Source of the DNA: Geobacter sulfurreducens PCA
GTDB taxonomy: Bacteria; Desulfobacterota; Desulfuromonadia; Geobacterales; Geobacteraceae
Length of the DNA stretch: 32,000 bases
Reading direction: 5' to 3'
Assembly (NCBI RefSeq): GCF_000007985.2
Contig: NC_002939.5
Span: 1,410,001 to 1,442,000, forward strand
The translations under genes and the position numbers were made by a program. Shown here piece by piece: positions 833 through 32,000 of the stretch (its first letter is position 1; every line of letters starts with the position of its first letter). Below the pieces are notes generated by a model, which was not told the origin of the DNA, did not search any database, and was given only the letters and a program-made list of their open reading frames with translations.

Positions 833-927
833 GTAATCCATGCGGTGTAAAGATCCGGCTGCAGCCGACGGGATTGTGCCGACACGGCTCCCGCTCATCA
901 GCTACGGCGACTTGCGGAGGAACTGGT

Positions 928-3816
928 ATGCTACAGAACATGCGGATCGGTTTGCGGTTGGGGCTCGGGTTCGGATTAGTGGTTGTGTTGATGGTGATCC
1001 TCGGCGGCATCTCCATCAATAGAATGGCTACCCTGAACACAGACCTTGACATGGTTGTCAAGGATCGCTGGCCCAAAGCGGAGACAACCTTCGGAATCAG
1101 TAGCCAGATCAACGTGGTGGCGCGGGCATTGCGCAACGCAATCCTTCTGGATGATCCAGCAGAGGTTCAGAAGGAGATTGCGCGAATCAACGAAGCTTCG
1201 GTGAGCGTCAGCAAGTCGATGGATGAACTGTCCAAGAGCATCACCAGCGAGGAGGGGAAGGCCAAACTGAAGGCGGTGGAGGCCTCCCGCGCCGCATACC
1301 GGGAGGATCTGCTGAAGCTGGTTGAGTATATCAGGGCCGGCAACAAGTCTGCTGCCCAGAAGATGCTCTTCGGCAGCTACCGCGAAAGGCAGCGAAGCTA
1401 CTTCGATGCCGTTGACGGGTTGACACAGTATCAGGCCAAGCTCCTGGCGGTATCCGGCAAGGAGGCTGAGCAGACCTTCGTTTCCTCCAGAAACATCATC
1501 GTAGCGCTTCTCGTGCTGTCGGCCCTTCTCGCATGTGCCTGCGCCTGGCTCGTGACCCGCTCCATCACCAGACCCATCGGCGCCTGCATGGCCGCTGCGG
1601 GCAGGATCGCCTCCGGCGACACCGACGTGACCCTGGACGTGACGGCGCGTGACGAAACCGGCCTGCTGCAGGTTGAGATGCAGAAGATGGTGGAAGCAAT
1701 CAGGGCGCTGATTGCGGACGCCGACATGCTCTCGCGGGCCGCGGTCGAGGGGCGTCTCGCGACCCGGGCCGATGCGGCTAAGCACCAGGGCGATTTCCGC
1801 AAGATCGTCTCCGGCGTCAACGATACCCTTGATGCGGTCATCACCCCACTCAATGTGGCCGCCGACTACGTGGATCGCATCTCCAGGGGCGACATTCCGC
1901 CCCGGATTACCGATACCTACAACGGAGATTTCAATGAGGTGAAAAACAACCTCAACCGGTGTATCGACGCGCTCAACGGCCTGCTGAGCGACATGAACGA
2001 GATGTCGAAAATGCACGATCTGGGCGACATCGACGTGGTTATGCCCGCTGACAATTACCAGGGCGCTTACCGGATCATGGCCAAGGGCGTGAACGACATG
2101 GTGAACGGTCACATCAGCGTCAAGAAAAAAGCGATGGCCTGCGTGGCCGAGTTCGGCAAAGGGAATTTCGACGCCGAACTGGAAAAGTTTCCCGGCAAAA
2201 AGGCTTTTATCAACGACACGATCGAGGCAGTACGGAGCAATATCAAGAACTTCATCGCCGACATGGGACACATGTCCCAACAGCACGACCTGGGTGACAT
2301 CGACGTTAAAATGCCGGAAGACCAGTACCAGGGGGCCTTCCAGGTCATGGCCAAGGGTGTGAACAACATGGTGGGCGGTCACATCAGCGTCAAGAAGAAG
2401 GCGATGGCCTGCGTGGCCGAGTTCGGCAAAGGGAACTTCAATGCCGACCTCGAAAAGTTCCCCGGCAAAAAGGCATTTATCAACGAGACGATCGAGGGCG
2501 TACGGACCAATCTCAAGTCCTTCGAAGAGCAACTGGGAATCCTGATCACGGCCGCTGCCGACGGCCAACTGGACAAGCGAGCCAACGCGGACCTCTTCGT
2601 GGGAGGCTGGAACCAGCTTGCCCGGGGTGTCAACGATACCATCACCAATATCGTCGAACCGCTGATGGTTACCGCCGATTACGTGGACCGGATCAGCAAG
2701 GGCGATATGCCGCCCCTTATCACCAAGGAATACCGGGGCCAGTACAACATCATCAAACAGAACCTGAATACGCTCATCGATGCCACCAACGGCATCGTTG
2801 CGGCCGCGAAAGAGGTTGCCGGCGGCAACCTGATGGTGGAGCTCAGGGAGCGCTCGGCCAAGGATGAGTTGATGCAGGCCCTTTCCGCAATGGTAAAGAA
2901 GCTCTCCGAGGTCGTGGCCGAGGTGAAGAGCGCCGCCAACAACGTGGCCGCGGGAAGTCGCGAAATGAGTTCCGGCTCCGAGCAGATGAGCCAGGGGGCC
3001 ACCGAGCAGGCGGCTGCCGCGGAAGAGGCGTCGTCAAGCATGGAGGAAATGTCTTCCAATATCAGGCAGAATGCCGATAACGCCTCCCAGACGGAGCGGA
3101 TCGCCATCAAGAGCGCCCAGGACGCCCGCGACGGCGGCAAGGCGGTGGCCGAAACCGTCACCGCCATGAAGGATATCGCCTCGAAGATATCGATCATCGA
3201 GGAGATTGCTCGCCAGACGAATCTCCTGGCACTGAACGCGGCCATCGAGGCGGCCCGCGCCGGCGAGCACGGCAAGGGATTCGCGGTGGTGGCGGCCGAG
3301 GTCAGAAAGCTTGCCGAGCGGAGCCAGAAGGCTGCCGGCGAGATCAGTGACCTGTCGGCCTCCAGCGTGGAGGTGGCGGAGAAGGCCGGCGAGATGCTGG
3401 GTCGAATCGTGCCCGACATTCAGAAAACCGCGGAACTGGTCCAGGAGATCAGTGCAGCCAGCAAGGAACAGGACACAGGCGCCGAGCAGATCAACCGGGC
3501 CATCCAGCAACTGGACCAGGTGATCCAGCAGAATGCCAGCGCAGCCGAAGAAATGGCATCCACGGCAGAAGAACTGTCTGCCCAATCGGAACAGCTCCAG
3601 TCGATCATTTCCTTCTTCCGGGTCGATAGCTCGGCGCAGTCCTCCAGTGCGATTGCGGCTGCAAAGCCTGCGGCGAAAAAGCCGGCCCTTGCCCACGCGC
3701 CGGCCAACGGGTACCACAAGGCAAATCAGGCTCCGGCCAAGAAGGTGGCACATGCAGGACTCAACCTCAATCTTGAAGGGGGAGATCACCTGGATTCCGA
3801 GTTCGAAACGTTCTAG
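928..3816 (+). CDS. Methyl-accepting chemotaxis protein (long, multi-HAMP-like, internally repeated)
   Basis: GGAGG at 916-920, then ATG 928 ([29 protein letters not shown] helix). The track start at 874 is an upstream extension. A second TM lies near residue 200, followed by a long cytoplasmic insert of repeated modules. Canonical MCP hairpin [42 protein letters not shown]. Ends in EFETF. Confidence 0.93.
2002..2541 (+). repeat. In-frame tandem duplication, 2 x 270 bp (2 x 90 aa), inside the MCP
   Basis: Unit 1 (2002-2271) is [75 protein letters not shown]. Unit 2 (2272-2541) is [75 protein letters not shown]. Long runs are identical at the nucleotide level. Confidence 0.9.
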
Positions 3817-6923: not shown

Positions 6924-8220
6924 AGAAAACAGCCTATTTGTGGTACATTGTCGCGCATAACGCTCTACAATTATTGAGGAAAGTTATGCGCGGCTTTGAC
7001 AGCAACACAGAAGCTCTCTTTACCTATGTGACACCTGAATCCTTTGTCCCGAAGGACCACCCCTTGCGGGCCATCCGTAAAATGGCCGACGAAGCCCTGG
7101 CAGGGATGGACAAGCTCTTTGACAGCATGTACGCCACAACCGGCCGCTCCTCAATCCCACCGGAGAAGCTCTTGAAAGCCCAACTGCTGATGATCCTCTA
7201 CTCCATCCGCAGCAACCGGCAGTTGGTAGAGCAGATCCATTACAACTTCCTGTTCCGCTGGTTCCTCGGCATGGGCTTGGACGAGAAAGTCTGGGATCAT
7301 TCCAGCTTTACCAAGAACAGTGACCGATTGATTGGCTCCGAAGTTGCCGCCGAGTTTCTTTCCCGGGTTCTGGCCCAGGCAGAGCGTAAGCGACTGTTGT
7401 CCCGCGAACACTTCACCGTTGACGGAACTCTCATCGAAGCCTGGGCTTCCATCAAGAGCTTCAAGCCCAAGGATGGACCTCCTTCAGCCGGTGGTGGCGG
7501 CAGAAACGATACCGTGGATTTCAAGGGACAGAAACTTACCAACGAAACCCATGGTTCCACCACTGACCCTGATGCCCGGCTCTACCGCAAGGGGAAGAAC
7601 AAGGAAGCCAAGCTCTGCTACCAGGGACATACCCTGATGGAGAATCGTAGTGGCCTCATCATCAGGACCAAGGTGACAACGGCAACCGGTTGCGGTGAGC
7701 GCGACGCAGCAAAGGCCATGGTGCAGCAATTGCCAAGGACGACCCGACGGATCACTCTTGGCTGCGACAAAGGCTACGACACAGAATCATTCGTCAAAGA
7801 GCTGCGTAGGCTAAAGATAACGCCACACGTGGCCCAGAACACCTCCAACAGGAAATCGGCCATCGACGGCAGAACCACCAAGCATCCGAACTACACCATC
7901 AGCCAGAAGATCAGGAAACGAATCGAAGAAGGCTTTGGCTGGATGAAGACCGTGGGCAGCTTACGCAAGACGATGTACCGGGGAATCGAGAAGATCGCCA
8001 TGCAACTTGATCTGCACGCTGCGGCCTACAACCTGGTTCGGATGAAAAACCTGGGTCTCGGTGTCACCTGAGAGGGGAAAACCAGGCTACATCAGCAGTA
8101 TATGAGGTTGATAAAGAGCAAAAAGAACGAGAAACAAAGGTTCTGAGCAACAAAACTGATTCAAAAAAAAACGAACTGCAAAGTTCAGCAAGTCAAATGG
8201 GGCCGATTTTCAACAGCCTG
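6902..8220 (+). mobile_element. IS5-family insertion sequence, 1319 bp, apparently intact
   Basis: 13-bp perfect terminal inverted repeats, a 4-bp direct repeat TTAG (fits the IS5 YTAR target) and a single DDE transposase ORF. GC content is visibly lower than in the flanks. Confidence 0.88.
6986..8071 (+). CDS. IS5-family DDE transposase
   Basis: GAGG at 6976-6979, then ATG 6986 (MRGFDSNTEALF...). The track start at 6938 is non-ATG. InsH/DUF772-type N-terminus (NFLFRWFLGMGLDEKVWDHSSFTKN). DDE_Tnp_1-type C-terminus with CDKGYD and R-x3-E-x6-K (RKRIEEGFGWMK). Confidence 0.9.
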   Translation: MRGFDSNTEALFTYVTPESFVPKDHPLRAIRKMADEALAGMDKLFDSMYATTGRSSIPPEKLLKAQLLMILYSIRSNRQLVEQIHYNFLFRWFLGMGLDEKVWDHSSFTKNSDRLIGSEVAAEFLSRVLAQAERKRLLSREHFTVDGTLIEAWASIKSFKPKDGPPSAGGGGRNDTVDFKGQKLTNETHGSTTDPDARLYRKGKNKEAKLCYQGHTLMENRSGLIIRTKVTTATGCGERDAAKAMVQQLPRTTRRITLGCDKGYDTESFVKELRRLKITPHVAQNTSNRKSAIDGRTTKHPNYTISQKIRKRIEEGFGWMKTVGSLRKTMYRGIEKIAMQLDLHAAAYNLVRMKNLGLGVT

Positions 8221-8544: not shown

Positions 8545-10251
8545 ATGACGTGGTTCCACAATTTAAAAATTGCATCTAAGCTGATAGTTGGTTTTGCTCT
8601 TGTTACCCTGATAGCTTGTGTTATAGGAGCTATTGGGATAACAAAAATAATGCAGATAGAAAAAGCCGATACAGAGATGTATGAGCTAAATGCAAAGCCA
8701 ATGGGACCTATCCTGACTACAGCTGTGGCTTTTCAGAGGATCAGGGTCAACTATCGTGAGATAGCACTGGAACAGACTAATGAAGGCAAGGTAAAGTTTT
8801 CCAACAGAATTAAAGAGTTGCAAAAGACAATAGATGACAATTTGCCCGAAATAGAAAAGTCTCTGAAGTCGGAAGAGACTAAGAAAGCCTACGCAGATAT
8901 AAAGGCAGAGTTGGCTAAGTTTGCCCCTCATCTTGACAAGATTGTGGCCCTGGCCATGGATGGGAAGAATGACCAGGCAGTGGCCTATATGAGGAGTGAC
9001 TCCGTGGCCGGGATCGCCCGGTCCGTGGACGACTCGATTCAGAAACTCGCTGACCTGAAAATTGATCTGGCCAAGAAGAAATCCGACGCCAATACCGCCG
9101 CCGCCAAGGCTGCGGTGGCGATGACGGGCATCATCCTCGTGCTCGGTGTTGCCCTGGCGGTCGGACTCGGCATATTCCTTTCCCGCATCATCAGCCGCCC
9201 GCTCAGATCGGCCGTGGACGTTTCGAACCGCCTGTCGGAAGGAGACCTGACCGTAACGATCGAAGCGACGAGCAAGGACGAGACGGGTCAGCTGCTTGCG
9301 GCGATGCACAACATGGTAGAGAAGCTGAAGGGCGTGGTAGCTGACGTGAAGAGCGCGGCAGACAACGTTGCCGCTGGCAGCCAGGAGCTCTCCTCCAGCT
9401 CCGAGGAGATGAGCCAGGGAGCCACCGAGCAGGCGGCCGCGGCCGAAGAGGCCTCCAGCTCCATGGAGCAGATGAGCTCCAACATCCGGCAGAACGCTGA
9501 CAACGCCACCCAGACCGAGAAGATCGCCCTGAAGAGCGCCGCCGATGCCAAGCAGGGCGGCACGGCCGTGGCAGAAACCGTCGTGGCCATGAAGGAAATC
9601 GCCTCCAAGATCTCGATCATCGAAGAGATAGCCCGCCAGACGAACCTGCTGGCGTTGAACGCAGCCATCGAAGCGGCGCGTGCCGGTGAGCACGGCAAAG
9701 GGTTCGCGGTGGTAGCGGCCGAGGTCAGAAAGCTTGCCGAGCGGAGCCAGAAGGCGGCGGGCGAGATCAGCGAGCTGTCTGCCTCCAGCGTTCAGGTAGC
9801 GGAAGAAGCCGGCGAGATGCTGACGCGGATCGTGCCGGACATCCAGCGTACCGCGGAATTGGTGCAGGAGATCAGCGCCGCGTGCAAGGAGCAGGACACG
9901 GGAGCGGAGCAGATCAACAAAGCTATCCAGCAGCTTGACCAGGTGATCCAGCAGAACGCCAGCGCCAGCGAAGAGATGGCGTCCACCAGCGAAGAGCTGG
10001 CCAGCCAGGCCGAACAGCTGCAGGAAACAATCGCCTTCTTCAAAACCGGCGAACAGGTGGGTTTGGTGCGCAAAGCGGCAGCAGTGCGCCAGTTCGCGGC
10101 CAAGAAAAAGGCAGCGATCCCTCATCTGGGTCACGGCACGTCCAACGGCTACCACGCCGAACCCGCGACGTCGCGGAAAGTGGCGGTGGGCGGCGGGGTA
10201 GACCTGAACCTGGACAGCGATCACCTTGACGACCAGTTCGAGAAATTCTAG
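8545..10251 (+). CDS. Methyl-accepting chemotaxis protein (4-helix-bundle-type periplasmic sensor)
   Basis: AAGGAGGA at 8533-8540, then ATG 8545. Layout is TM, about 170 aa of helical periplasmic region, TM, HAMP and the MCP signalling domain. C-terminal QFEKF. Confidence 0.95.
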
Positions 10252-10728
10252 GAGGGAGCGATGGCACACGCAGACACAACGGAAACGCGGCAGTACCTGA
10301 CCTTCACTCTTGCCGGGGAAGTCTTTGGGGTGGACGTGGCCAAGGTCCGTGAGATATTGGAATGGAGCAGCATCACCAAGGTCCCGCAGACTCCCGAATT
10401 CATGCGCGGTGTGATCAACCTGCGGGGGAGCGTGGTTCCGGTGATCGACTTGCGGCAGAAATTCGGGATGCCTGAAACGGAGCGCAGCATCAACACGTGC
10501 ATCATCGTGGTTGAGGTAGAGACGGGAGCTGAGACACTGGTGCTGGGGATGCTTGCGGACTCAGTGCAGGAGGTGTTCGAGCTGGAGGGAGTGAACATCG
10601 AGCCTGCGCCCCGGATCGGGACGAAGTTGGACACCTCGTTCCTGAAGGGAATGGGGAAGCGCGGCGATGCCTTTCTGATGATCCTGGACATCGACCGGGT
10701 ATTCGGCGGCGATGATCTGGCCGGGCTG
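9245..10728 (+). repeat. Segmental duplication copy 1 (MCP 3' half + cheW)
   Basis: Near-identical to 11866-13343. The offset is 2621 and becomes 2615 after a 6-nt indel in a divergent linker (about 10021-10090). Confidence 0.92.
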
Positions 10729-10755
10729 GCCGCGGCAGGGGAGCGGGCAGCGTAG
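10261..10755 (+). CDS. cheW: Chemotaxis coupling protein CheW
   Basis: GGAGGGAG RBS overlaps the MCP stop. 164 aa with CheW-like sequence (YLTFTLAGEVFGVDVAKVREI, INLRGSVVPVIDLRQKFG, VLGMLADSV). Confidence 0.95.
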   Translation: MAHADTTETRQYLTFTLAGEVFGVDVAKVREILEWSSITKVPQTPEFMRGVINLRGSVVPVIDLRQKFGMPETERSINTCIIVVEVETGAETLVLGMLADSVQEVFELEGVNIEPAPRIGTKLDTSFLKGMGKRGDAFLMILDIDRVFGGDDLAGLAAAGERAA

Positions 10756-10985: not shown

Positions 10986-11174
10986 ATATAATGGTGGTAA
11001 AAAATAGGCGGCAAATTTTATGGTGGTTAAAGCCGGGGTCGGTTGGGCAGGCACTACGTGTGACGAATAGAATGGTTATTGGAAAATGGTCTGACAACGG
11101 TATATATCAAATCGTTTTCAGGTCGACAGCGGTAGAAGTGCAATATGTTGCTTCACTTATCCAAGGAGGATGGT

Positions 11175-12866
11175 ATGCGTATCGGTGATCTCAAAATTGG
11201 CGTACGGCTTGGTATTGGATTTGGTGTTTTGCTCGTCCTACTGGGTGTCGTTACCGTGGTCGGCATCAATGGTATGAAGGAGATTAACTCAAAGCTGGAT
11301 CGCATTCTCAAGGTCAACTATGGGAAGATCAAGAATGCCAATGAAGTCTCTATGGTCGTTGGCGATTTGATGGGCAAGATCAATGAAATAATGCTCAAGG
11401 ACGTGAATGAGCGGCCTGCAATCAAACAGGAAATTGAAAAATTGCGGAGCGATTACCGCTCTGCCCTGGAGAGGCTTGAACAACTGGAGCAGACGGATCA
11501 GGGCAAACAATTGATCGCCGGTGCCAAATCCGCTATTGATAATGCCAAAAAGGCCAATAACGACATCATCGAGCTGAGTCTTGCCGGGAAAACCGATCAG
11601 GCTCTGATAGTTTACAACAAGGAAGGCGCCCCCCTATCGCAAAAGATCGTGACGGCATTCAAGAATATCGTGAAGTATCAGGAAGAGCGGATGGAGCTGC
11701 GCTACGCTGAAGCGCTGAAAGCCTACGGCACCTCCCGGGCCGTTGCACTCGGTGTTGCTTTCTGCGCAGCGATCATCGGCATTCTTATCAGCCTGTTTGC
11801 GACCAGGAGCATTACGCGTCCCCTCGACAAAGCCGTATCGGTATCCAATGAACTGGCAGAGGGGAACCTGACCGTAACGATCGAAGCGACGAGCAAGGAC
11901 GAGACGGGTCAGCTGCTTGCGGCGATGCACAACATGGTAGAGAAGCTGAAGGGCGTGGTAGCTGACGTGAAGAGCGCGGCGGACAACGTTGCCGCCGGCA
12001 GCCAGGAGCTCTCCTCCAGCTCCGAGGAGATGAGCCAGGGAGCCACCGAGCAGGCGGCCGCGGCCGAAGAGGCCTCCAGCTCCATGGAGCAGATGAGCTC
12101 CAACATCCGGCAGAACGCTGACAACGCCACCCAGACCGAGAAGATCGCCCTGAAGAGCGCCACGGATGCCCGCGAGGGTGGCAAGGCTGTTGCCGGCACG
12201 GTGAGTGCCATGAAGGAAATCGCCTCCAAGATCTCGATCATCGAGGAGATAGCCCGTCAGACGAACCTGCTGGCGTTGAACGCAGCCATCGAAGCGGCGC
12301 GTGCCGGTGAGCACGGCAAAGGGTTCGCGGTGGTAGCGGCCGAGGTCAGAAAGCTTGCCGAACGGAGCCAGAAGGCAGCGGGCGAGATCAGCGAGCTGTC
12401 TGCCTCCAGCGTTCAGGTAGCGGAAGAAGCCGGCGAGATGCTGACGCGAATCGTGCCGGACATCCAGCGTACCGCGGAACTGGTGCAGGAGATCAGCGCC
12501 GCGTGCAAGGAGCAGGACACGGGAGCGGAGCAGATCAACAAAGCTATCCAGCAGCTTGACCAGGTGATCCAGCAGAACGCCAGCGCCAGCGAAGAGATGG
12601 CGTCCACCAGCGAAGAGCTGGCCAGTCAGGCCGAACAGCTGCAGGCCACCATTTCATTCTTCCGGACCGATGATCGTGGCGCGTCAAGCCGGAGCGCGGT
12701 CCATCGTCCCGTTGCCAAGAAAAAGGCAGCGATCCCTCATCTGGGTCACGGCACGTCCAACGGCTACCACGCCGAACCCGCGACGTCGCGGAAAGTGGCG
12801 GTGGGCGGCGGGGTAAACCTGAACCTGGACAGCGATCACCTTGACGACCAGTTCGAGAAATTCTAG
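11175..12866 (+). CDS. Methyl-accepting chemotaxis protein (4-helix-bundle-type sensor)
   Basis: AGGAGGA at 11164-11170, then ATG 11175 ([25 protein letters not shown]). The track start at 11145 is an upstream extension. TM, helical periplasmic region, TM, HAMP and MCP signalling domain. C-terminal QFEKF. Confidence 0.94.
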
Positions 12867-13343
12867 GAGGGAGCGATGGCACACGCAGACGCAACGGAAA
12901 CGCGGCAGTACCTGACCTTCACTCTTGCCGGGGAAGTCTTTGGGGTGGACGTGGCCAAGGTCCGTGAGATATTGGAATGGAGCAGCATCACCAAGGTCCC
13001 GCAGACTCCCGAATTCATGCGCGGTGTGATCAACCTGCGGGGGAGCGTGGTTCCGGTGATCGACTTGCGGCAGAAATTCGGGATGCCTGAAACGGAGCGC
13101 AGCATCAACACGTGCATCATCGTGGTTGAGGTAGAGACGGGAGCTGAGACACTGGTGCTGGGGATGCTTGCGGACTCAGTGCAGGAGGTGTTCGAGCTGG
13201 AGGGAGTGAACATCGAGCCTGCGCCCCGGATCGGGACGAAGTTGGACACCTCGTTCCTGAAGGGAATGGGGAAGCGCGGCGATGCCTTTCTGATGATCCT
13301 GGACATCGACCGGGTCTTCGGCGGTGATGACTTGGCCGGGCTG
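11866..13343 (+). repeat. Segmental duplication copy 2 (MCP 3' half + cheW)
   Basis: Partner of 9245-10728. The first ~440 nt of the two cheW copies differ at a single base (10276 A versus 12891 G, by hand alignment). Confidence 0.92.
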
Positions 13344-13370
13344 ACGACATTGGAGCAGACGGCGGCATAG
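12876..13370 (+). CDS. cheW: Chemotaxis coupling protein CheW (second copy)
   Basis: Same RBS and spacing as copy 1. The protein is identical to copy 1 except T5A and the last ~8 residues. Confidence 0.95.
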   Translation: MAHADATETRQYLTFTLAGEVFGVDVAKVREILEWSSITKVPQTPEFMRGVINLRGSVVPVIDLRQKFGMPETERSINTCIIVVEVETGAETLVLGMLADSVQEVFELEGVNIEPAPRIGTKLDTSFLKGMGKRGDAFLMILDIDRVFGGDDLAGLTTLEQTAA

Positions 13371-16315: not shown

Positions 16316-16549
16316 GCGGGCACCTGTTCATCTCTGCGGCAGCATCGGGAAACGTGTGGGGCATAGGCAGGAAGATGTAATGATGCCGGGGCAGTTGCGG
16401 CGCGTGCTCCCGGCAGTTTATTCCCAGGTATGGTATACGCGGTTATAAAACTGCTGTTGGTTCGGCATGGCCGTTAAATCATCGTTAAAGATGGGTGGCG
16501 GGCCGTCGAAAGATATCTCTAGCACATTGTGAATGTTCGGGAGGTATGC

Positions 16550-18034
16550 ATGGGATTGCGCAACATGACTATCCGGTGGAAGCTCATTGCCATGACCGCG
16601 ATAATCGTTGTTCTGACGGCAACGGTGATCACAGCCATTTGCCTTGCGCGGTTCAAGGCCGATCTGATGAGGGTTGCCACGGTTTCCCAGGAAACGCGGC
16701 TCAAGACTCTCTGGGAACTGCTCCGTCAGAAGGGAGCCAACGCCCGGATCGACAATGGCAGGCTCATGGTCGGCGAGTACGTGGTAAACGACAACTTTGA
16801 GATTCCCGACAAGGTGAAGGATCTTTGCGGCGGGACGGCAACCATCTTCATGGGCGACCTGCGGGTTTCCACCAACGTCAAGAAGGAGGACGGCAGCCGC
16901 GCCATCGGCACAAAGCTCCAGGGGCCCGCCTATGATACAATTTTCAAGCAAGGGAAACCTTACCGCGGCGAAGCGAATATTCTCGGCGTTCCCTACTTTA
17001 CGTCCTATGATCCGCTCCGGGATGCGAGCGGTGCGATCATCGGCGTGCTGTACGTCGGCGTAAAGAAAAGTGAGTTCTTCGAATCTTACGATCGCCTCAA
17101 GCTGATCATCGTCGGCAGCGCAGTGGGCACGGTTCTGCTGGCGTGTCTTGTGGCCGGGTTCGTGTCGGGACGGCTCGTGCGCCCGCTGCGCGACGCAGTT
17201 GCCACCGTAGACCGGCTGGCCACGGGCGATCTTTCCGTTGCCGTTGAAGCAAAGGGGACGGATGAGATCGGTCGCCTGCTTGCCGCCATGGGCAATATGG
17301 TGAGCAAGCTCAGGGAGGTAGTCACCAGTGTCAAGTCTGCTTCGGACAACGTGGCCGCCGGTGCCCGCGAGCTGTCCGTAAGCGCCGAGGAGATGAGCGA
17401 GGGGGCCACCGAGCAGGCGGCAGCGGCAGAGCAGGCGTCCGGCAACATGGAGGAGATGAGCGGTTCTATCAGACACACTGCCGATAATGCGGTCCAGACC
17501 GAGAAAATTGCCGGCAAGAGCGCCGCGGATGCCCGCGAGGGAGGGGAGGCGGTTGCCGAGACCGTATCGGCCATGAAGGTTATCGCCGGCAAGATCGCGA
17601 TCATTGAAGAGATCGCCCGCCAGACGAATCTGCTGGCCCTGAACGCGGCCATCGAGGCGGCCCGGGCCGGCGAGCACGGCAAGGGGTTCGCGGTGGTGGC
17701 CTCCGAGGTGCGCAAGCTGGCCGAACGGAGTCAGAAAGCTGCGGGAGAGATCGGTGAGTTGTCCGCATCCAGCGTGCGAATCGCGGAGAAGGCTGGAGAG
17801 ATGCTTGCCCGCATGATTCCCGATATTCAGCGGACCGCAGAACTGGTGCAGGAGATCAGCGCGGCGTGCAAGGAGCAGGATTCCGGCGCGGACCAGATTA
17901 ACAGGGCCATCCAGCAACTGGACAACGTGATCCAGCAGAACGCCTCCACCAGCGAGGAAATGGCGTCCACCAGCGAAGAACTGGCGAGTCAGGCCGAACA
18001 GCTCCAGGCAACCATAGCCTTTTTTAACATCTGA
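16550..18034 (+). CDS. Methyl-accepting chemotaxis protein with a single-Cache-type sensor
   Basis: GGGAGG at 16539-16544, then ATG 16550 ([22 protein letters not shown]). Cache-like stretch [30 protein letters not shown]...[32 protein letters not shown] and MCP domain follow. Ends ATIAFFNI, with no C-terminal tail or pentapeptide. Confidence 0.92.
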
Positions 18035-18088: not shown

Positions 18089-18270
18089 ATTATCTGTAAG
18101 TGTCAGTTTGTCGTGTTGTTAGACCAATTGTTTTAGTTGGTGGGCCTTTGTTTTAAAAAAACTCCTCAAGGTTTTACTGGGTAAACCGATACACGCAATA
18201 GTTGGAGTGAAATAAGGTTTTTCGGAGATGAGTCCGGGAAAACCCTGAGTAACTGGAAGGAGAGGTGTCA

Positions 18271-19971
18271 ATGAGCTGGAAGAACCTGAAGCTGAGTCTC
18301 AAGGTGCTTGCGGGCATCGGTAGTGTCCTTGTGTTGCTGGCGGTCATCGGCGTCTGGGCGGTGAACGGCCTGTCAAAGGTTGTCAGGGACGGCCACGAGG
18401 TAAGCGAAGGGAACAAACTGCGGGCCGAGCTCCTCCAACGGGAGGTGGATCACCTCAACTGGGCCAAGAACGTCAGCACGTTCCTGCTGGATGGCAAGGT
18501 CAGGGAGCTCACCGTTCAGGTGGATCACACCAAGTGCAAGTTCGGCGAGTGGTACTACGGCGAGGGACGCAAGCAGGCCGAGGCCATGCTTCCCGCGCTG
18601 AAGGACGAACTGGCTGCCATCGAGGAACCCCACCGCAAGCTCCACGAGTCGGCAGGGCTCATCAAGAAGGCCTACAACAAAGAGCAGGGTGAGCAGGGCC
18701 GCAAGGACGCGGAGATCATCTTCGCGAGTCAGACCCAGCCGAACCTGCAGCTGGTGCAGAAGCACCTGGCCGGGCTAAATGAGACATCCCGCAAGAATAT
18801 CCTCTCCGATGAACAGATGATCGCCAACGCCAACAGCACCAAGACCGCCGTGATCGCCCTGAGCATTGCCGCCCTGGTAATCGGCGTTGTTCTGGCACTG
18901 CTCATCTCCCGTTCCATCAGCATTCCGGTCCTGAAGGGGGTTGAATTCGCCCTGAAGATAGCTGACGGCGACCTGCGGAGCACCCTCGACATTGATCGGA
19001 AGGACGAGGTGGGGCAGTTGGTGGCGGCCCTCAACGACATGGTTGCCAAGCTCCGTGACATTGTAACCGATGTGAAGAACTCGGCCGATAACGTTGCTGC
19101 CGGCAGCCAGGAGCTCTCCTCCAGCTCCGAGGTCATGAGTCAGGGAGCCACCGAGCAGGCAGCCGCGGCCGAAGAGGCCTCCAGCTCCATGGAGCAGATG
19201 GCGGCCAATATCCGGCAGAACGCGGACAACGCCTCTCAGACTGAGAAGATCGCCCTGAAGAGCGCCACTGATGCCCGCGAGGGTGGCAAGGCTGTTGCCG
19301 GCACGGTGAGTGCCATGAAGGAAATCGCCTCCAAGATCTCGATCATCGAGGAGATAGCCCGTCAGACGAACCTGCTGGCGTTGAACGCAGCCATCGAAGC
19401 GGCGCGTGCCGGTGAGCACGGCAAAGGGTTCGCAGTGGTAGCGGCCGAGGTCAGAAAGCTTGCCGAACGGAGCCAGAAGGCAGCGGGCGAGATCAGCGAA
19501 CTGTCTGCCTCCAGCGTTCAGGTAGCGGAAGAGGCCGGCGAGATGCTGGCGCGGATGGTGCCGGATATCCAGCGTACCGCGGAACTGGTGCAGGAGATCA
19601 GTGCCGCGTGCAAGGAGCAGGACTCGGGAGCGGAGCAGATCAACAAGGCGATCCAGCAGCTTGACCAAGTGATCCAGCAGAACGCCAGCGCCAGCGAAGA
19701 GATGGCGTCCACCAGCGAAGAGCTGGCCGGGCAGGCGGAGCATCTCCAGTCGACCATCACATTTTTCAAAACCGACGAGCAGGGGCGGGCTGCCGGGAGA
19801 TCTCCGGCCGTGCGTCCGGCCGCGGTGGCGAAGAAGCCCGCTGCGTTGCGCCTGGGCCACGGCAACGAACGCCGGACGGAGCCTGTCGCGCCGCGAAAGG
19901 CTGTAGCCGGCAAGGGCGTGGACCTGAAGATGGACGGCGACTACCTGGATGACCAGTTCGAAAAGTTCTAG
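18271..19971 (+). CDS. Methyl-accepting chemotaxis protein with a CZB-type (zinc-binding) motif in the inter-TM region
   Basis: GGAAGGAGAGG RBS, then ATG 18271 (MSWKNLKL...); the track start at 18265 is a GTG. HLNW-x24-CKFGEW-x26-HRKLH (18451-18645) fits the CZB pattern. TM, HAMP and MCP domain are present. C-terminal QFEKF. Confidence 0.92.
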
Positions 19972-25793: not shown

Positions 25794-26894
25794 TTACTTT
25801 TGAAAGCTCCGCACGAACCGGCGATCGATCAGGTCTTTGAGGAGCCAGGGGAGCGTGCCGTGCCGGACGATCTTTCCCCGGACCAGCACTCCGGTGCCGT
25901 CACCCAGGTTCAGTATCTGGAGAAAGCGCTTCTGAGGCTTGAAGGGGGCAAGGGGGCACCCGCCAAGGTACGCCCGGAGGTTGGCGTGGAGAAGCGGTCC
26001 CTGGCGGACCGCATAGACCCCCACCCGCGCCAGGGGAGCACCTTCGAAGGCGATGCAGTCGCCGCCGCCGAATACTGACGCCGAGCCCGTCGACTGGAGG
26101 AAGCGGTTGACGCTCAGGGAGCCGTCCGGGGCCAGGGGAAGCCCCAGGCTTTCGAGGAGGAGAGGCGGTTTCACGCCGGTGGAAATCAGGGCGACGTCGA
26201 ATGGGATCCGGCGGCCGTCGGCAAGGATGGCCGTACCGTCTGTCCAGCCGGAAACGGGAGCGTCTTCGATCATTCGGATTCCGCGCCGGTCGAAGGAGGC
26301 GCGGACCAACTCACGGGTCAGGGGAGGGAAGGGTGCGAGCAGGGGGCCGGCACTGGCAATGGTGACGCTGCCCCGATCGCCCAGCAGCCGGCGGCCGTTG
26401 CCGGCAATCTCCACACCGGCCGCGCCGCCGCCCACCACCAGAAGTCGGGGAGGCGCGGTGCAGCCCGCTTCCCGCAGCCGTTCCACTGCCCGGGCCAGAT
26501 TGGCGATGGGTTTGACCGGGTAGACGCCGGGCAGGGCGGGGACCAGCCCGGCCACTATCGATCCGGCGTTAAGGGAGAGGGCATCGTAGGCCAGCTCTCT
26601 GCCGTCGGTGAGCCGGAGCAGCCTGCAGTCCGGATCGAGCCCCGCTGCCTCGCCGATCACGCACCGCCCGCCGCCCGATTCCGCCAGCCGCTGCACGTCG
26701 ATGCGAACCTGCTCTTCCGTGTAGAGCCCCCCGAGCATTCCCGGCCCCATGCCCGAATAGTAGTGATGGCGGGCCGGGGTGACGAGGGTGACGGCGATGC
26801 CCGCTCCGGTAAGCTCCCGGAGGCGCCGGAGGGTATGGAGATGGGCATGCCCTCCGCCTACCAGTATCAGGTGCCGGGCGGCGCGGCCGTTCAT
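25794..26894 (-). CDS. FAD-dependent pyridine nucleotide-disulfide oxidoreductase (NDH-2-like)
   Basis: [17 protein letters not shown] and [15 protein letters not shown] dinucleotide folds, plus GGGDCIAF. Its ATG overlaps the pgi stop (ATGA at 26891-26894). Confidence 0.85.
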
Positions 26895-28480
26895 CGGGCG
26901 GAAAAGCGGCTCCGGGTAAGAGGGGATGCCGCTTCCATGACGACACCGTGGTCCGGGTTGGCGGCGGCGTGCAGGAGGCTTCTGAATATCGTTTCCGCCT
27001 CTTCCGGCCTGCCCAGTGCCGCGGCGATCTCCGTGGCGGAAAGGGTGCCCCCTTCCCGTCGCAGGAATGCCAGTGCCTCGCCCGTGAGGGCCAGGACGCC
27101 GCCTGCCGCCTTTTTCCCCGCCTCCACGCCGGGCTGGTGGTAGGCGTTGATGTTGACCAGGGAGGCATAGAGCCCCACGGCCCGCTCGAAGAGGGCCACC
27201 AGGACACCCACCGTGCGTGGGGTTATGGCGGGAATGGTGATGGTGAGTGACTCGCGTCCCTTTTCGCTCAGGGCGGTGCGGGTCCCCTGAAGGAAGCCGG
27301 ACAGGTAGTCGCCGCTGGTGAAGCCCGGCTCAACCGCCAGGGAGGCCCCCTCGCGATCCTTCAGCACCTCGATGAAAGCGACGAAGAAGTTGTTGGTCCC
27401 CTCACGCAACTGCTGCACGTAGGCGTGCTGATCCGTGGAGCCCTTGTTGCCGTAGACCGTGAGCCCCTGGTTCACCACGGTGCCGTCCAGATCCAGCTCC
27501 TTGCCGATGGATTCCATGATGAGTTGCTGGAGGTAGCGGGAGAAGAGGAGCAGGCGATCCTTGTAGGGGAGCACCACCATGTCGCGGGAGCCGCTGCCCC
27601 GGGTGGCGTGATGCCACATGAGGGCCAGGAGGGCCGCCGGATTGCGGAGCGTCTCGCGCCGGCGAGTCAGTGTGTCGCAGGTCCGGGCGCCATCGAGGAA
27701 GTCTCTGATGGGGATTCCCTGGAGCGCGGCCGGCAGGAGTCCCACGGCCGAGGTCTCCGAGGTGCGGCCGCCGACCCAGTCCCACATGGGGAAGCGGCAC
27801 AGCCAGCCGCCGGCCTCGGCGGTCCGGTCCAGCTCGCTGCCGGCGCCGGTGACTGCCACGGCATGACGGGAAAAGTCGAGCCCGGCACGCCGGTAGGCCG
27901 CCTCCGCCTCAAGCATGCCGTTCCTCGTTTCCTTGGTGCCGCCGCTCTTGGAGATGACGATGGCAAGGGTTTCCGCCAGCCCATCCGCTCCGAGGGTCTC
28001 AAGTACCCGGTCCATGCCGTCAGGGTCGGTGTTGTCGAAGAAGAAGGGCCGCATCCGGTCGCCGTGGCCGCCCAGGGCATCTGCCACGAACTGTGGCCCC
28101 AAGGCTGAGCCGCCGATGCCGATCACCAGGACGTTGCGGAAGAGGCGGGCTCGGGGCGCCGTCACCACCCCGTTATGGACATCAGCGGCAAAGGCCGTTA
28201 CACGATCAACAGTCTCCCTGATGGCGGCGGCGATAGCGGGGTCGGGGGCCAGTTCGGGACTTCTGAGCCAATAGTGCCCCACCATCCGGTTTTCGTCCGG
28301 ATTTGCGATCTCACCCGCCTCCAGCCGTTCCATGGCGTCGAAGGCGCGCTGCATGGCCGGCTCCATGGAGGCGAAGAAATCATCGCTGAAGGCCATTCTG
28401 CTGACATCAAGGATGAGTCCCGTGTCCGCGTCGAAAAGAAGATAGGTCTGGTAGCGTTGCCACAGTTCATGGGCGTTCAT
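26891..28480 (-). CDS. pgi: Glucose-6-phosphate isomerase
   Basis: GGAGGAG RBS, then the ATG at 28480 ([11 protein letters not shown]...). The track start at 28570 is an extension across the upstream gene tail. PGI signatures [14 protein letters not shown] and [14 protein letters not shown]. Confidence 0.93.
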
Positions 28481-28496
28481 TGGACTCCTCCGGTCT

Positions 28497-29504
28497 TCAT
28501 GGTGTTCCGGGCCCCTCCGGGGCTCCGATGGCGCCGCCTCAGGTGAAACCGGAACCGGCGGTGCAGGCATAACAGTAATCGTCAGTGGGGATCAGGGTTC
28601 CTTCCGGGGGGAGGCAGGCCATGTCGGCCACGTGACGCCGCTCTCCCCCGAGCCCCCGGCCGGCGGCCAGGTTGAAGTCGCAGTCGTAGAGATGTCCGTC
28701 CCAGGCCACGGAGACCAGAGCGCGGCACATGAGGCCGGGCACCGTGGCCGGATTGAAGTTTCCGGCCAGCCGCTGCAGATATCCCTCCAGGTTGCCCGAG
28801 TCCTCCAGCCAGCGGCGGAAGCGCCCCAAAGGGACGTTGGCAAAGGTGTAGAGGTGCGAGAAGACCACCCCGTACTTGCGTTCCAGGTCCCGGCGGAGCT
28901 TCTGTTCTGCCTCGCACTGGGAGGGGGGAAGGAACGCGCCGGTCGGATTGGCCACCAGGTCCAGTTCCAGGCCGCTCCCGTCGCGGCCGTAGCCGAGATC
29001 GTTCAGGAGTTTCAGGGCCGTGATGCTCCTCTCCATGATGCCGTGGCCGCGCTGGGCCTCGGCCTGGCCGACGTTGGCCGAGGGGAACGATGCAACAATG
29101 GCGGCGCCCGCAGACCTGAGCAGCTCGGGCAGGTGCGCCACGCCGGGGTTCAGGAACGCCGAGAGGTTCGTCCGGATGATAAGCCGGGGCGTCAGCGGCG
29201 CCAGCCCGGTCACCAGCCGCTCGATGCCGGGGACGAGCTCCGGAGCGCCGCCGGTGATGTCGATGGCCTGAAACCGGCATCGGGAGGCGTAGGCGATGAC
29301 CTCCTCCATGGTTTCCGGCGTCATGATCTCGGTCCGGGATGGTCCCGCCTCCAGGTGGCAATGGCGGCAGGCCAGGTCGCACAGGAACCCCACGTTTACC
29401 TGGAGGGTGGTGGTCCGATCCCGGCGAAGCTCCAGCCCGCACCGCTCCAGGGCGCGGGAGAACGCCTCGATGCAGGGGGAGGATTGCGCAAGGGATTCCG
29501 TCAT
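28497..29504 (-). CDS. arsS: ArsS-type radical SAM/Cys-rich protein, probable selenoprotein (TGA at 28539-28541 read as Sec)
   Basis: Radical [11 protein letters not shown] (CxxxCxxC). C-terminus [30 protein letters not shown], then TGA at 28497-28499. The first TGA falls where the family motif CxxCTAGxGxxCxG has Cys. Confidence 0.7.
28508..28527 (-). other. SECIS-like hairpin 11 nt downstream of the in-frame UGA
   Basis: mRNA CGG-A-GCCCC GGA GGGGC-CCG: an 8-bp GC stem with one bulged A and a G-rich apical loop that starts 20 nt after the UGA. Confidence 0.5.
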
Positions 29505-29515
29505 GGTCCGGTCGG

Positions 29516-29848
29516 CTACAGCGACAGCTTCTCGGCGATTTTACGCATCTGCACCCCGTGGACCAGGGCCGCGCCGCCCCTGATGGCGTTGGCCACGTGG
29601 ACCGCTTCGGTCATCTCGCCCAGATTCGATCCCTTCTCCAGGCAGGCCCGGGTATAGGCGTCGATGCAGTAGGGGCACTGGACCGCGTGGGCAACGGCCA
29701 GGGCGATGAGGGTCTTTTCCCGCTCGGTCAGCTCTCCCTCGGCGAACACTGCGCCGTAGTAATCAAAGAACTTCTTGGCCAAGTCCGGCGCATCCTTGCC
29801 GATGTCGCCGAACTTCGCCAGATCGTCGGGTACATAGTACGAGTCCAT
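29516..29848 (-). CDS. AhpD/carboxymuconolactone-decarboxylase-like protein (arsenosugar-associated peroxidase-like type)
   Basis: AAGGAGAA RBS, then the ATG at 29848 (MDSYYVPDDLAKF...). CPYC redox motif. 110 aa. The start overlaps the TVP38 stop by 1 nt (TGATG). Confidence 0.85.
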   Translation of the reverse strand: MDSYYVPDDLAKFGDIGKDAPDLAKKFFDYYGAVFAEGELTEREKTLIALAVAHAVQCPYCIDAYTRACLEKGSNLGEMTEAVHVANAIRGGAALVHGVQMRKIAEKLSL

Positions 29849-30528
29849 CAGGTTCTCCTTTGAGCGGTAATTTTCTTGTACAGAACCGGCACCAGCGAAA
29901 AGAGCCCCAGCAGGGCAAAGGAACCGATCACCCGCGGCGAGGCGATGTCCGCGGGGCTCGCGATGGCGGCCAGACTGGCGCCGGCATTGACGTAGACGAA
30001 ACCGCCCGGGATGATCCCCACGAAGGTCCCGAGCACGAAAGTGCGCAGGGGAAGCCGCGTCAGACCCGCCCCCAGGTTGATCAGGAAGAAGGGAAACAGG
30101 GGGACGAGCCGCAGAAAGAGCAGATAGTTGAGTCCGGCCTTTTCCAGTTCCCGGTTGATCCCCTCCAGCCTGGGGCCGAAGCGACGCTGGACCGCATCGT
30201 GAAAGAGGTAACGGGTAAGCAGGAAGGCCAGCGTCGCCCCGATGGTGGCGCCGGTCACCGCCCAGGCAGTCCCTGCCACGGCCCCGAACAGGGCGCCGGC
30301 GGCAAGGGAAAGGATCGTGGCCCCCGGCAGCGACAGGGCGGTCTGGATGATGTAGATCGCCAGGAAAACGGCAACCGTCAGGGTGCGGTGTTCCCCGTAA
30401 AAGGCCAGCAGTGCCCCATGATTGGCTTTGAGCGAGGCAAAGGTCAGCAGCCGTCCCAGGTCCAGGATGAAGAACAGGGCGACCAGTGCGACACAGAAGG
30501 AGATGACGATAATTCGTTGTGCGTTCAT
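29848..30528 (-). CDS. TVP38/TMEM64 (DedA-related) family membrane protein
   Basis: 226 aa and polytopic. Family-typical LSLPGATILSLAAGALFG and LRLVPLFPFFLINLGAGLT. Confidence 0.88.
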   Translation of the reverse strand: MNAQRIIVISFCVALVALFFILDLGRLLTFASLKANHGALLAFYGEHRTLTVAVFLAIYIIQTALSLPGATILSLAAGALFGAVAGTAWAVTGATIGATLAFLLTRYLFHDAVQRRFGPRLEGINRELEKAGLNYLLFLRLVPLFPFFLINLGAGLTRLPLRTFVLGTFVGIIPGGFVYVNAGASLAAIASPADIASPRVIGSFALLGLFSLVPVLYKKITAQRRT

Positions 30529-30616: not shown

Positions 30617-32000
30617 CTAGCGCCACAGCCGGCGCAGGGTCAGCATGATCCCCATCAGCCGCTTCACCCCGGGGGTGAGGCGGGTCCGGTTCCAGGCATC
30701 GGCCAGCTTCTTGATCGCTTCGGCCTGAGTGGGGTAGGGGTGGATGCTGCGGCCGATGGCGGAAAGGCCCAATCCGGCGGACATGGCCAGGGTCAGCTCG
30801 TTCAGCATCTCGCCGGCGTGGCGGGCCACGATGGTGGCGCCGACGATCCGGTCGGTGCCCCGCTTCAGGTGCACCCGGGCGAAACCCTCGTCTTCCCCGT
30901 CAAGCAGAGCCCGGTCGACCTCGGTCAGGGGGACGGTCAGGGTGTCCACGGCAAGACCGCGCTCCCCGGCCTCCCGTTCGTAGAGGCCCACGTGGGCAAC
31001 CTCCGGGTCGGTGTAGGTGCACCAGGGAATGATCTGGGTAGAGAACCGCTGCCGGGCGCCGAAGAGGGCGTTGGCGACGACGATGCGCGCCATGGCGTCT
31101 GCGGCGTGGGTGAATCGGTAGGGGGAGCAGATGTCGCCGGCGGCGTAGACTCGCGGATTGTCGGTCCGGAGCCGGTCGTTGACCCTGACCCCTCGGAGCG
31201 GATCGGCGACAATGCCCGCCCGCTCCAGTCCCAGCCCTTCGATGTTCGGCGTTCGCCCGGCCCCCACCAGGATCTCGTCAGCCGTCACCTCATGGGATTG
31301 ATCCCCCTGCCGGACGATGAGCGTCCGGGCTCCGCTCCGCCGTTCCACCCCGACGACAGCTGCCGCCGTCAGGAACGATACCCTGTCCCGCTCCAGGGCG
31401 TGCCGCACCAGGGCCGCGGCGTCGGTGTCCTCCCGCGGCAGGATCTCCGGGGCGGCCTCGATCACCGTCACGCTGCTGCCGAGCCGTGCCGCGGCCTGGG
31501 CCAGCTCGCAGCCGATGGGGCCGCCGCCGATGACGGCCAGTCGCGCCGGAAGCGTTGCGAGGGAAAAAATCGTCTCGTTGGTGAGGTACCCCGCTTCCGC
31601 CAGCCCCGGGACCGGAGGGGCTGCGGCCCGGGCACCGGTGCAGACGGCGGCATGAACGAAATTCAGGCGCCGTCCGTCCACCTCCAGGGCGTTCCGGCTG
31701 ATGAAGCTACCCTGGCCGAAGAAGACGTGGACCCCCAGGTCACGAAAGCGCACTGCCGCGTCGTGACGGCCGATTTCCGCCCGCAGGCGGCGCATCCGCT
31801 CCATGACGGCCGCACCGTCGACGCCGGTCCCGTGGCACCCCGTCACGCCGAAGGGGGCGCCGTTCCCGGCATCGTGAGCGGCCCGCGCGGCGCGGATGAG
31901 GGCCTTGGATGGGACGCAGCCGTAGTTGAGACAGTCGCCCCCCAGCCGGTGGCGCTCCACCAGCGCGACACGCGCACCGAGCCCTGCTGCGCCTGCCGCG
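30617..32000 (-). CDS. Mercuric-reductase/dihydrolipoamide-dehydrogenase-like disulfide oxidoreductase, 5' end off window
   Basis: The frame stays open to base 32000 (...AAGAAGLGARVALVERHRLGGDCLNYGCVPSK). Redox-active CxxxxC, a second Rossmann fold LAVIGGGPIGCE and a C-terminal dimerisation domain. Confidence 0.9.
   Translation of the reverse strand, partial: AAGAAGLGARVALVERHRLGGDCLNYGCVPSKALIRAARAAHDAGNGAPFGVTGCHGTGVDGAAVMERMRRLRAEIGRHDAAVRFRDLGVHVFFGQGSFISRNALEVDGRRLNFVHAAVCTGARAAAPPVPGLAEAGYLTNETIFSLATLPARLAVIGGGPIGCELAQAAARLGSSVTVIEAAPEILPREDTDAAALVRHALERDRVSFLTAAAVVGVERRSGARTLIVRQGDQSHEVTADEILVGAGRTPNIEGLGLERAGIVADPLRGVRVNDRLRTDNPRVYAAGDICSPYRFTHAADAMARIVVANALFGARQRFSTQIIPWCTYTDPEVAHVGLYEREAGERGLAVDTLTVPLTEVDRALLDGEDEGFARVHLKRGTDRIVGATIVARHAGEMLNELTLAMSAGLGLSAIGRSIHPYPTQAEAIKKLADAWNRTRLTPGVKRLMGIMLTLRRLWR

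Follow-up and report, generated by a model that had tools for sequence, protein, structure and literature searches.

Where does the arsS gene of Geobacter sulfurreducens PCA end? On the minus strand of the window (the whole stretch of 32,000 nucleotides analyzed here), an ORF at 29504-28539 encodes 321 amino acids with the C-terminus ...GFT and is closed by a TGA at 28541-28539. The same frame stays open beyond this TGA through 13 further codons, up to a second TGA (28499-28497) that lies 16 nt before the pgi ATG at 28480 (Table 1). The preliminary description of the locus took the first UGA to be a probable selenocysteine (Sec) codon and expected gene callers to truncate the protein. The coordinates that it gave for the ORF and for both TGA codons all check out, as does the spacing to pgi, whose start is backed by an alignment to NF010696 from residue 1 and by identity with AAR34687.1. 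Our analysis supports its reading of the codon. The UGA at 28541-28539 is very probably decoded as Sec, because it aligns with Cys in homologs, the family profile extends past it, the codons downstream are constrained as coding sequence, a covarying hairpin follows it in the Sec-type loci only, and the organism is a Sec-decoding one.

Table 1. Features at and around the arsS locus of G. sulfurreducens PCA (positions are those of the window).
Feature	Position	Strand	Evidence
Predicted full-length arsS CDS; 335 codons including Sec322, plus the second TGA as the likely true stop; radical SAM/DUF3641, TIGR04167	28497-29504	-	Translation; profile matches
Radical SAM cluster motif C42-x3-C46-x2-C49 (CDLACRHC)	29358-29381	-	All three Cys invariant in 24-sequence alignment
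C311-x2-C314 pair in Cys-rich domain, eight residues before Sec322	28563-28574	-	Invariant in 24-sequence alignment
In-frame UGA, very probable Sec codon; residue 322, motif G-F-T-U-G-G	28539-28541	-	TGA/Cys codon alignment; review motif GxxU
13 predicted post-Sec codons; only the first four (GGAI, 28527-28538) conserved across the family	28500-28538	-	Codon entropy at homologous loci
SECIS-like hairpin of 8 bp and a single bulged A; begins 11 nt past the UGA	28508-28527	-	Fold; register in homologs; covariation
Likely true arsS stop codon TGA, 16 nt upstream of the pgi ATG	28497-28499	-	Sequence; translation
pgi, glucose-6-phosphate isomerase, immediately downstream of arsS	26891-28480	-	NF010696, 836 bits; 529-aa product identical to AAR34687.1 (strain PCA)
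AhpD/CMD-like "arsenosugar biosynthesis-associated peroxidase-like protein", TIGR04169 (perox_w_seleSAM); CxxC with Cys (QCPYC)	29516-29848	-	194 bits (cutoff 120)
DedA/VTT-domain membrane protein, same gene string	29848-30528	-	PF09335 VTT_dom
FAD-dependent pyridine nucleotide-disulfide oxidoreductase (CxxxxC), running past the window end	30617-32000	-	NF004991, 706 bits, profile 64-507 of 509

When the UGA is translated as Cys, the readthrough product reaches 376.4 bits with TIGR04167 (NCBIfam cutoff 300), and residues 26-326 match profile positions 2-303 of 303. The profile ends at residue 326, four residues beyond the UGA. TIGR04167 has the short name rSAM_SeCys and the curated product name "arsenosugar biosynthesis radical SAM (seleno)protein ArsS", in line with the earlier suggestion that the family includes (seleno)proteins. 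The Pfam domain DUF3641 (PF12345) matches residues 192-325 with 160 bits, and the match to Pfam Radical_SAM is marginal (28.9 bits vs. a gathering score of 29.5). The 24-sequence ArsS alignment also shows no variation at four cysteines downstream of the cluster motif (C260, C275, C311, and C314). A sequence search of the PDB with ArsS returned the generic radical SAM core only (8wm2, YydG), and the Cys-rich domain was found in none of the structures. The C-terminal motif CxxCTAGxGxxCxG, named in the preliminary description, is real: Cys-type homologs carry such a C-terminus. The G. sulfurreducens protein has the same tail, CxxCTAGxGFT-[C/U]-GG, with a TGA at the Cys position. In the alignment this TGA occupies precisely the place of the last conserved Cys in Cys-type homologs, as had been proposed.

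We compared homologs both as stored proteins and as DNA. Of the best 120 ArsS homologs found by a search of the protein collection, 95 have their annotated C-terminus exactly at ...GFT, and 25 run on as GFT-C-GG[S/A]I, so the homologs do not consistently end at GFT without a Cys or Sec. For the DNA comparison we used 80 genomic ArsS loci, taken from among the matches listed in a contig scan and nearly all from Thermodesulfobacteriota/Desulfuromonadota. The motif could be located, and the codon at the UGA site read from the DNA, in 78 of them. In these 78 loci the codon aligned with residue 322 is TGA in 70, TGC or TGT in eight, and TAA or TAG in none. The sequence after the site, GG[A/S]I, is common to Sec-type and Cys-type loci, and its codons vary freely at the third position, with the first two positions fixed. 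Across 69 distinct Sec-type sequences, the mean entropy of the four post-UGA codons is 0.43 bits at codon position 1, 0.32 bits at position 2, and 1.74 bits at position 3. As a pattern in sequence, this is the signature of translation under selection. Judged by the comparative criteria that are standard for a Sec/Cys pair, the arsS UGA is a clean case.

These data bear directly on an alternative in which the UGA is a genuine stop, the 321-aa protein is functional, and the similarity and hairpin downstream are incidental. That form is indeed what NCBI and other sources store for the exact sequence. A genuine stop would drift among TGA, TAA, and TAG, yet all 70 non-Cys loci have TGA, and the second stop does drift in the Sec-type loci (TGA 53, TAG 15, TAA 3). 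A stop at this site also sits poorly with the three-periodic constraint downstream, with the same GG[A/S]I following Cys in the Cys-type homologs, and with a curated TIGR04167 profile that extends beyond the UGA. The remaining evidence on this alternative comes from the hairpin.

The hairpin that the preliminary description had reported 11 nt after the UGA was confirmed as described. It consists of CGG (28527-28525), a bulged A (28524), GCCCC (28523-28519), a GGA loop (28518-28516), GGGGC (28515-28511), and CCG (28510-28508). The folding energy of 28527-28508 is -14.6 kcal/mol. A 66-nt stretch folds no better than its shuffled versions (z = +0.61), and the isolated 26-nt hairpin gives z = -1.97, with 7 of 200 shuffles as good. 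In GC-rich DNA the G. sulfurreducens hairpin by itself is weak evidence, and these single-sequence statistics are a point on the side of a genuine stop. The hairpin stands above chance because it keeps a fixed register, covaries, and is absent from the Cys-type homologs. When the loci are anchored on the UGA, nearly all Sec-type loci have a stem-loop in one register, with the 5' arm ending near nt 23 and a loop of 3-5 nt. The mean contiguous stem is 6.0 bp in 71 Sec-type loci, 3.6 bp in composition shuffles, and 2.6 bp in the eight Cys-type loci. Stems of at least 5 bp occur in 85% of the Sec-type loci and 22% of the shuffles, but in none of the eight Cys-type loci.

Covariation was scored on an ungapped 40-sequence subset from which the G. 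sulfurreducens window was left out, pairing helix columns 16-23 with 28-35. Paired cells make up 76% of the helix vs. 65% in shuffles. For covariation the helix scores 0.394, a value that 0 of 500 shuffled alignments reach (0.186 ± 0.022), and 0.07-0.16 when the partners are slid. The column pair 19-32, which had no role in the selection of the subset, is GC in 14 sequences, AU in 12, GU in five, UA in two, and CG in one. Among the closest relatives, which keep the hairpin, two Geotalea-like sequences are told apart by a compensated stem change (GACCU/AGGUC vs. GGCCU/AGGCC). We built a covariance model of the UGA plus hairpin from the same 40 sequences, with the window again excluded. It matches 28541-28502 on the minus strand at 32.7 bits (E about 5e-7), with 10.8 bits for the runner-up in the 32 kb. 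None of the eight Cys-type loci is matched at the homologous site. Two further matches, L068:6259-6311 (-) at 21.4 bits (nominal E 6e-4) and L015:5348-5387 (+) at 17.3 bits (8e-3), lie antisense in ordinary genes and were rejected as false positives; the E-values of the model are therefore rough. A hairpin that covaries and is missing from the Cys-type loci is hard to reconcile with a genuine stop, which we consider very unlikely.

The closest relative, a Geobacter locus that is 87% identical (L087), keeps the hairpin as GGGGCCCC-GGA-GGGGUCC. The commonest loop in the family is AGUU, and the 3-nt GGA loop of G. sulfurreducens differs from it; GGA loops also occur in L003 and L055, on different stems. 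An Rfam scan of 28300-28700 at E<=10 returned chance matches only and no SECIS family. Bacterial SECIS elements being family-specific, this null result says nothing either way.

The layout of the hairpin relative to the stop codon varies with the length of the tail. Of 71 Sec-type loci, 55 have a post-Sec tail of 6 aa; G. sulfurreducens has one of 13 aa and shares this long tail only with L087 among the loci compared. In most Sec-type arsS genes (L004, L009, L011, L012, etc.; e.g., L004:4931-4975), the tail is 6 aa and the true stop lies inside the SECIS hairpin, at the junction of stem and loop (CC-UGA-GUUCAGG). The true stop of Sec-type genes is usually UGA (53/71), so that in such short-tail genes two UGAs 21 nt apart would have opposite meanings. 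G. sulfurreducens is an exception to this arrangement: with its 13-aa tail the hairpin lies wholly within the coding sequence, whereas in short-tail relatives it spans the stop codon. Apart from this difference in tail length, we found nothing substantive that sets the gene apart from its Sec-type relatives in TIGR04167.

Both types of gene occur in Geobacteraceae (L001, L002, L015, L020, L024, and L041 vs. L031, L052, and G. sulfurreducens). This mixture of Cys- and Sec-type ArsS implies repeated Sec/Cys exchange within one family, with loss of the hairpin in the Cys forms.

If the UGA is read through, the inserted residue need not be Sec. Low-level readthrough of UGA by tRNA-Trp is known in bacteria, and this codon might be decoded not by Sec-tRNA(Sec) but by a near-cognate tRNA for Trp or Cys, with the hairpin merely stimulating the event. 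The inserted amino acid cannot be told from sequence alone. Every homolog without UGA has Cys at the site, though, which is the classic Sec/Cys pair, and both the distance of the hairpin from the UGA and its G-containing loop are as in bacterial SECIS elements. UGA is read as Sec in other proteins of the host, and curators and selenoproteome surveys alike class the family as selenoproteins. We regard near-cognate decoding as highly improbable. That the hairpin serves to terminate or attenuate transcription between arsS and pgi, as a GC-rich stem-loop close to a gene end might suggest, can be set aside as the least probable reading of all, since no U-tract follows the hairpin, a terminator scan of 28300-28750 was empty, pgi adjoins ArsS in 0 of 80 other loci (among the matches listed) while the distance of the hairpin from the UGA is still fixed, and the Cys-type genes do not have the hairpin.

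Under Sec decoding, the UGA at 28541-28539 would be read by SelB carrying Sec-tRNA(Sec). SelB would be recruited by the hairpin at 28527-28508, with its start 11 nt after the UGA and its G-containing apical loop. Translation would then go on for 13 codons to the stop at 28499-28497 and yield an ArsS of 335 residues. Where Sec insertion fails, e.g., under selenium limitation, the 321-aa form without Sec322 would be released. The proposed scheme shares with recoding of the E. coli fdhF type (mechanism as in PMC1794560) the UGA, a stem-loop at about 11 nt, a G in the apical loop, and an organism that contains SelB. It differs in that the sequence of the arsS hairpin is family-specific and matched by no Rfam model, and binding by SelB is presumed.

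Sec decoding in the organism is well documented. G. sulfurreducens has been listed as a Sec-decoding organism with eight selenoproteins, including SelD and FdhA (Zhang et al., 2006, PMC1794560). A 2026 study proved Sec insertion at the UGA of MccSep in G. sulfurreducens PCA by selenium quantification and ESI-MS (PMC13510729). Within the window we found no selA, selB, selC, or selD among the genes scanned, and a tRNA scan of the 32 kb found none.

The prediction of Sec in G. sulfurreducens ArsS is already known, and the present result is a correct rediscovery. A radical SAM protein of G. sulfurreducens with Sec very near the C-terminus was reported in 2005 (Chaudhuri and Yeates, PMC1242214). 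Selenoproteome reviews of 2022 and 2026 list a [quoted passage not shown] (PMC9312934; PMC13188914). AAR34688.1 (GSU1312), the G. sulfurreducens PCA representative of that selenoprotein family, is almost certainly the arsS gene described here, because its accession is next to AAR34687.1, which is identical to the pgi of the window. The family is the same one, with a score over the curated cutoff of TIGR04167 (rSAM_SeCys) and with G-F-T-U matching GxxU. The arsS product is a predicted selenoprotein, and reviews file its family under that heading: where the 2022 review treats it, the family stands among predicted, not experimentally verified, selenoproteins, with reference to Zhang and Gladyshev (2005, Bioinformatics 21:2580) (PMC9312934). 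We found no mention of GSU1312 in the literature searched.

Cys-type ArsS, the DDMAA synthase, belongs to the same family and has the same domain architecture and the same CxxCTAGxGFT-[C/U]-GG tail, but has Cys where the G. sulfurreducens protein would have Sec. It catalyzes a radical adenosylation, in which the 5'-deoxyadenosyl radical is added to dimethylarsenite, DMAs(III), to give DDMAA (PMC13598754; bioRxiv 10.64898/2026.04.29.721666). In the literature searched we found no paper linking ArsS or arsenosugar chemistry with selenocysteine. The Sec-type enzyme is apparently uncharacterized, since Cys-type proteins were the ones studied biochemically, and papers on selenoproteomes and papers on arsenic do not refer to each other.

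Sec322 is presumed to be functionally important and to matter for catalysis, and it sits with C311 and C314 in a Cys-rich tail. A possible role comes from ArsL, the radical SAM enzyme of arsinothricin, in which three Cys of a C-terminal CCxxC motif bind As(III) (bioRxiv 10.64898/2026.04.29.721666). ArsL and ArsS share the formation of an As-C bond and a C-terminal Cys cluster. ArsL belongs to another family and uses another radical (ACP), so the comparison is one of analogy. By that analogy C311, C314, and U322 may form a binding site for the arsenic substrate or have a redox role, as partner or relay. A more specific proposal, that Sec322 is a ligand of the arsenic substrate (with an As-Se bond to dimethylarsenite) or forms a selenenylsulfide with C311 or C314 during turnover, is tentative, and we think it rather unlikely to be right as it stands. 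If it were right, the Sec-type ArsS found in 70 of the 78 sampled relatives would amount to a selenium-arsenic enzyme distinct in its catalysis. The same proposal would also imply organoarsenical synthesis in Geobacter. We found no arsM in the 32-kb window.

The AhpD-like gene lies 11 nt upstream of arsS and corresponds to a 110-aa gene in CP078092.1; the FAD-dependent oxidoreductase is a 505-aa gene there. Across 80 ArsS loci (among the matches listed), a homolog of the AhpD-like protein is a neighbor in 72, the FAD oxidoreductase in 28, and pgi in none. These counts suggest a functional module made of ArsS and thiol/redox partners, with pgi as a lineage-specific neighbor outside the system. 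Beside a Cys-type ArsS, at L068:4976-7135 (+), the DedA/VTT protein and the FAD disulfide oxidoreductase are fused in one 719-aa ORF. The fusion supports a functional link between the separate genes at 29848-30528 and 30617-32000.

The biological weight of the Sec assignment is modest, and its main use is in annotation. The exact 321-aa sequence is stored under WP_164930425.1, UAC05338.1, and HCD95496.1 with the name "(seleno)protein ArsS", is encoded on CP078092.1 (GCA_019904315.1), and recurs in many assemblies of sequencing runs. The label "(seleno)protein" comes from the family model, but the sequence on record ends where the Sec codon stands. Gene callers do truncate the protein, as had been anticipated, and the 321-aa entries, like the 95 of 120 homolog entries mentioned above, lack both the GGAI tail and the conserved residue, Cys or Sec, that precedes it. 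On our reading the correct arsS product would be 335 aa with U at 322. Most of the relatives sampled, from anaerobic delta-proteobacterial lineages, would use Sec at this site, and ArsS enzymology has proceeded without attention to selenium. G. sulfurreducens itself can be manipulated genetically, and its Sec system is proven.

Other parts of the window deserve brief mention. The ORF at 25794-26894 (-) shares 4 nt with the end of pgi, stop included, and encodes a pyridine nucleotide-disulfide oxidoreductase of 366 aa. Its best match is the TIGR03169 family ("Nterm_to_SelD"), usually fused or adjacent to SelD, but with a score of 269 bits, below the cutoff of 310, we did not count it as evidence of selenium metabolism. 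No homolog of this ORF was found near ArsS in the 80 other loci (among the matches listed). An IS5-family transposase (NF033581, 289 bits) lies at 6938-8071 (+), between genes for a hybrid histidine kinase and a chemotaxis receptor. Two consecutive pairs of MCP and CheW genes lie at 8545-10755 (568 aa and 164 aa) and 11145-13370 (573 aa and 164 aa), both on the plus strand. The pairs have near-identical family scores and look like a tandem duplication. Further MCP genes are located at 874-3816, 16529-18034, and 18265-19971.
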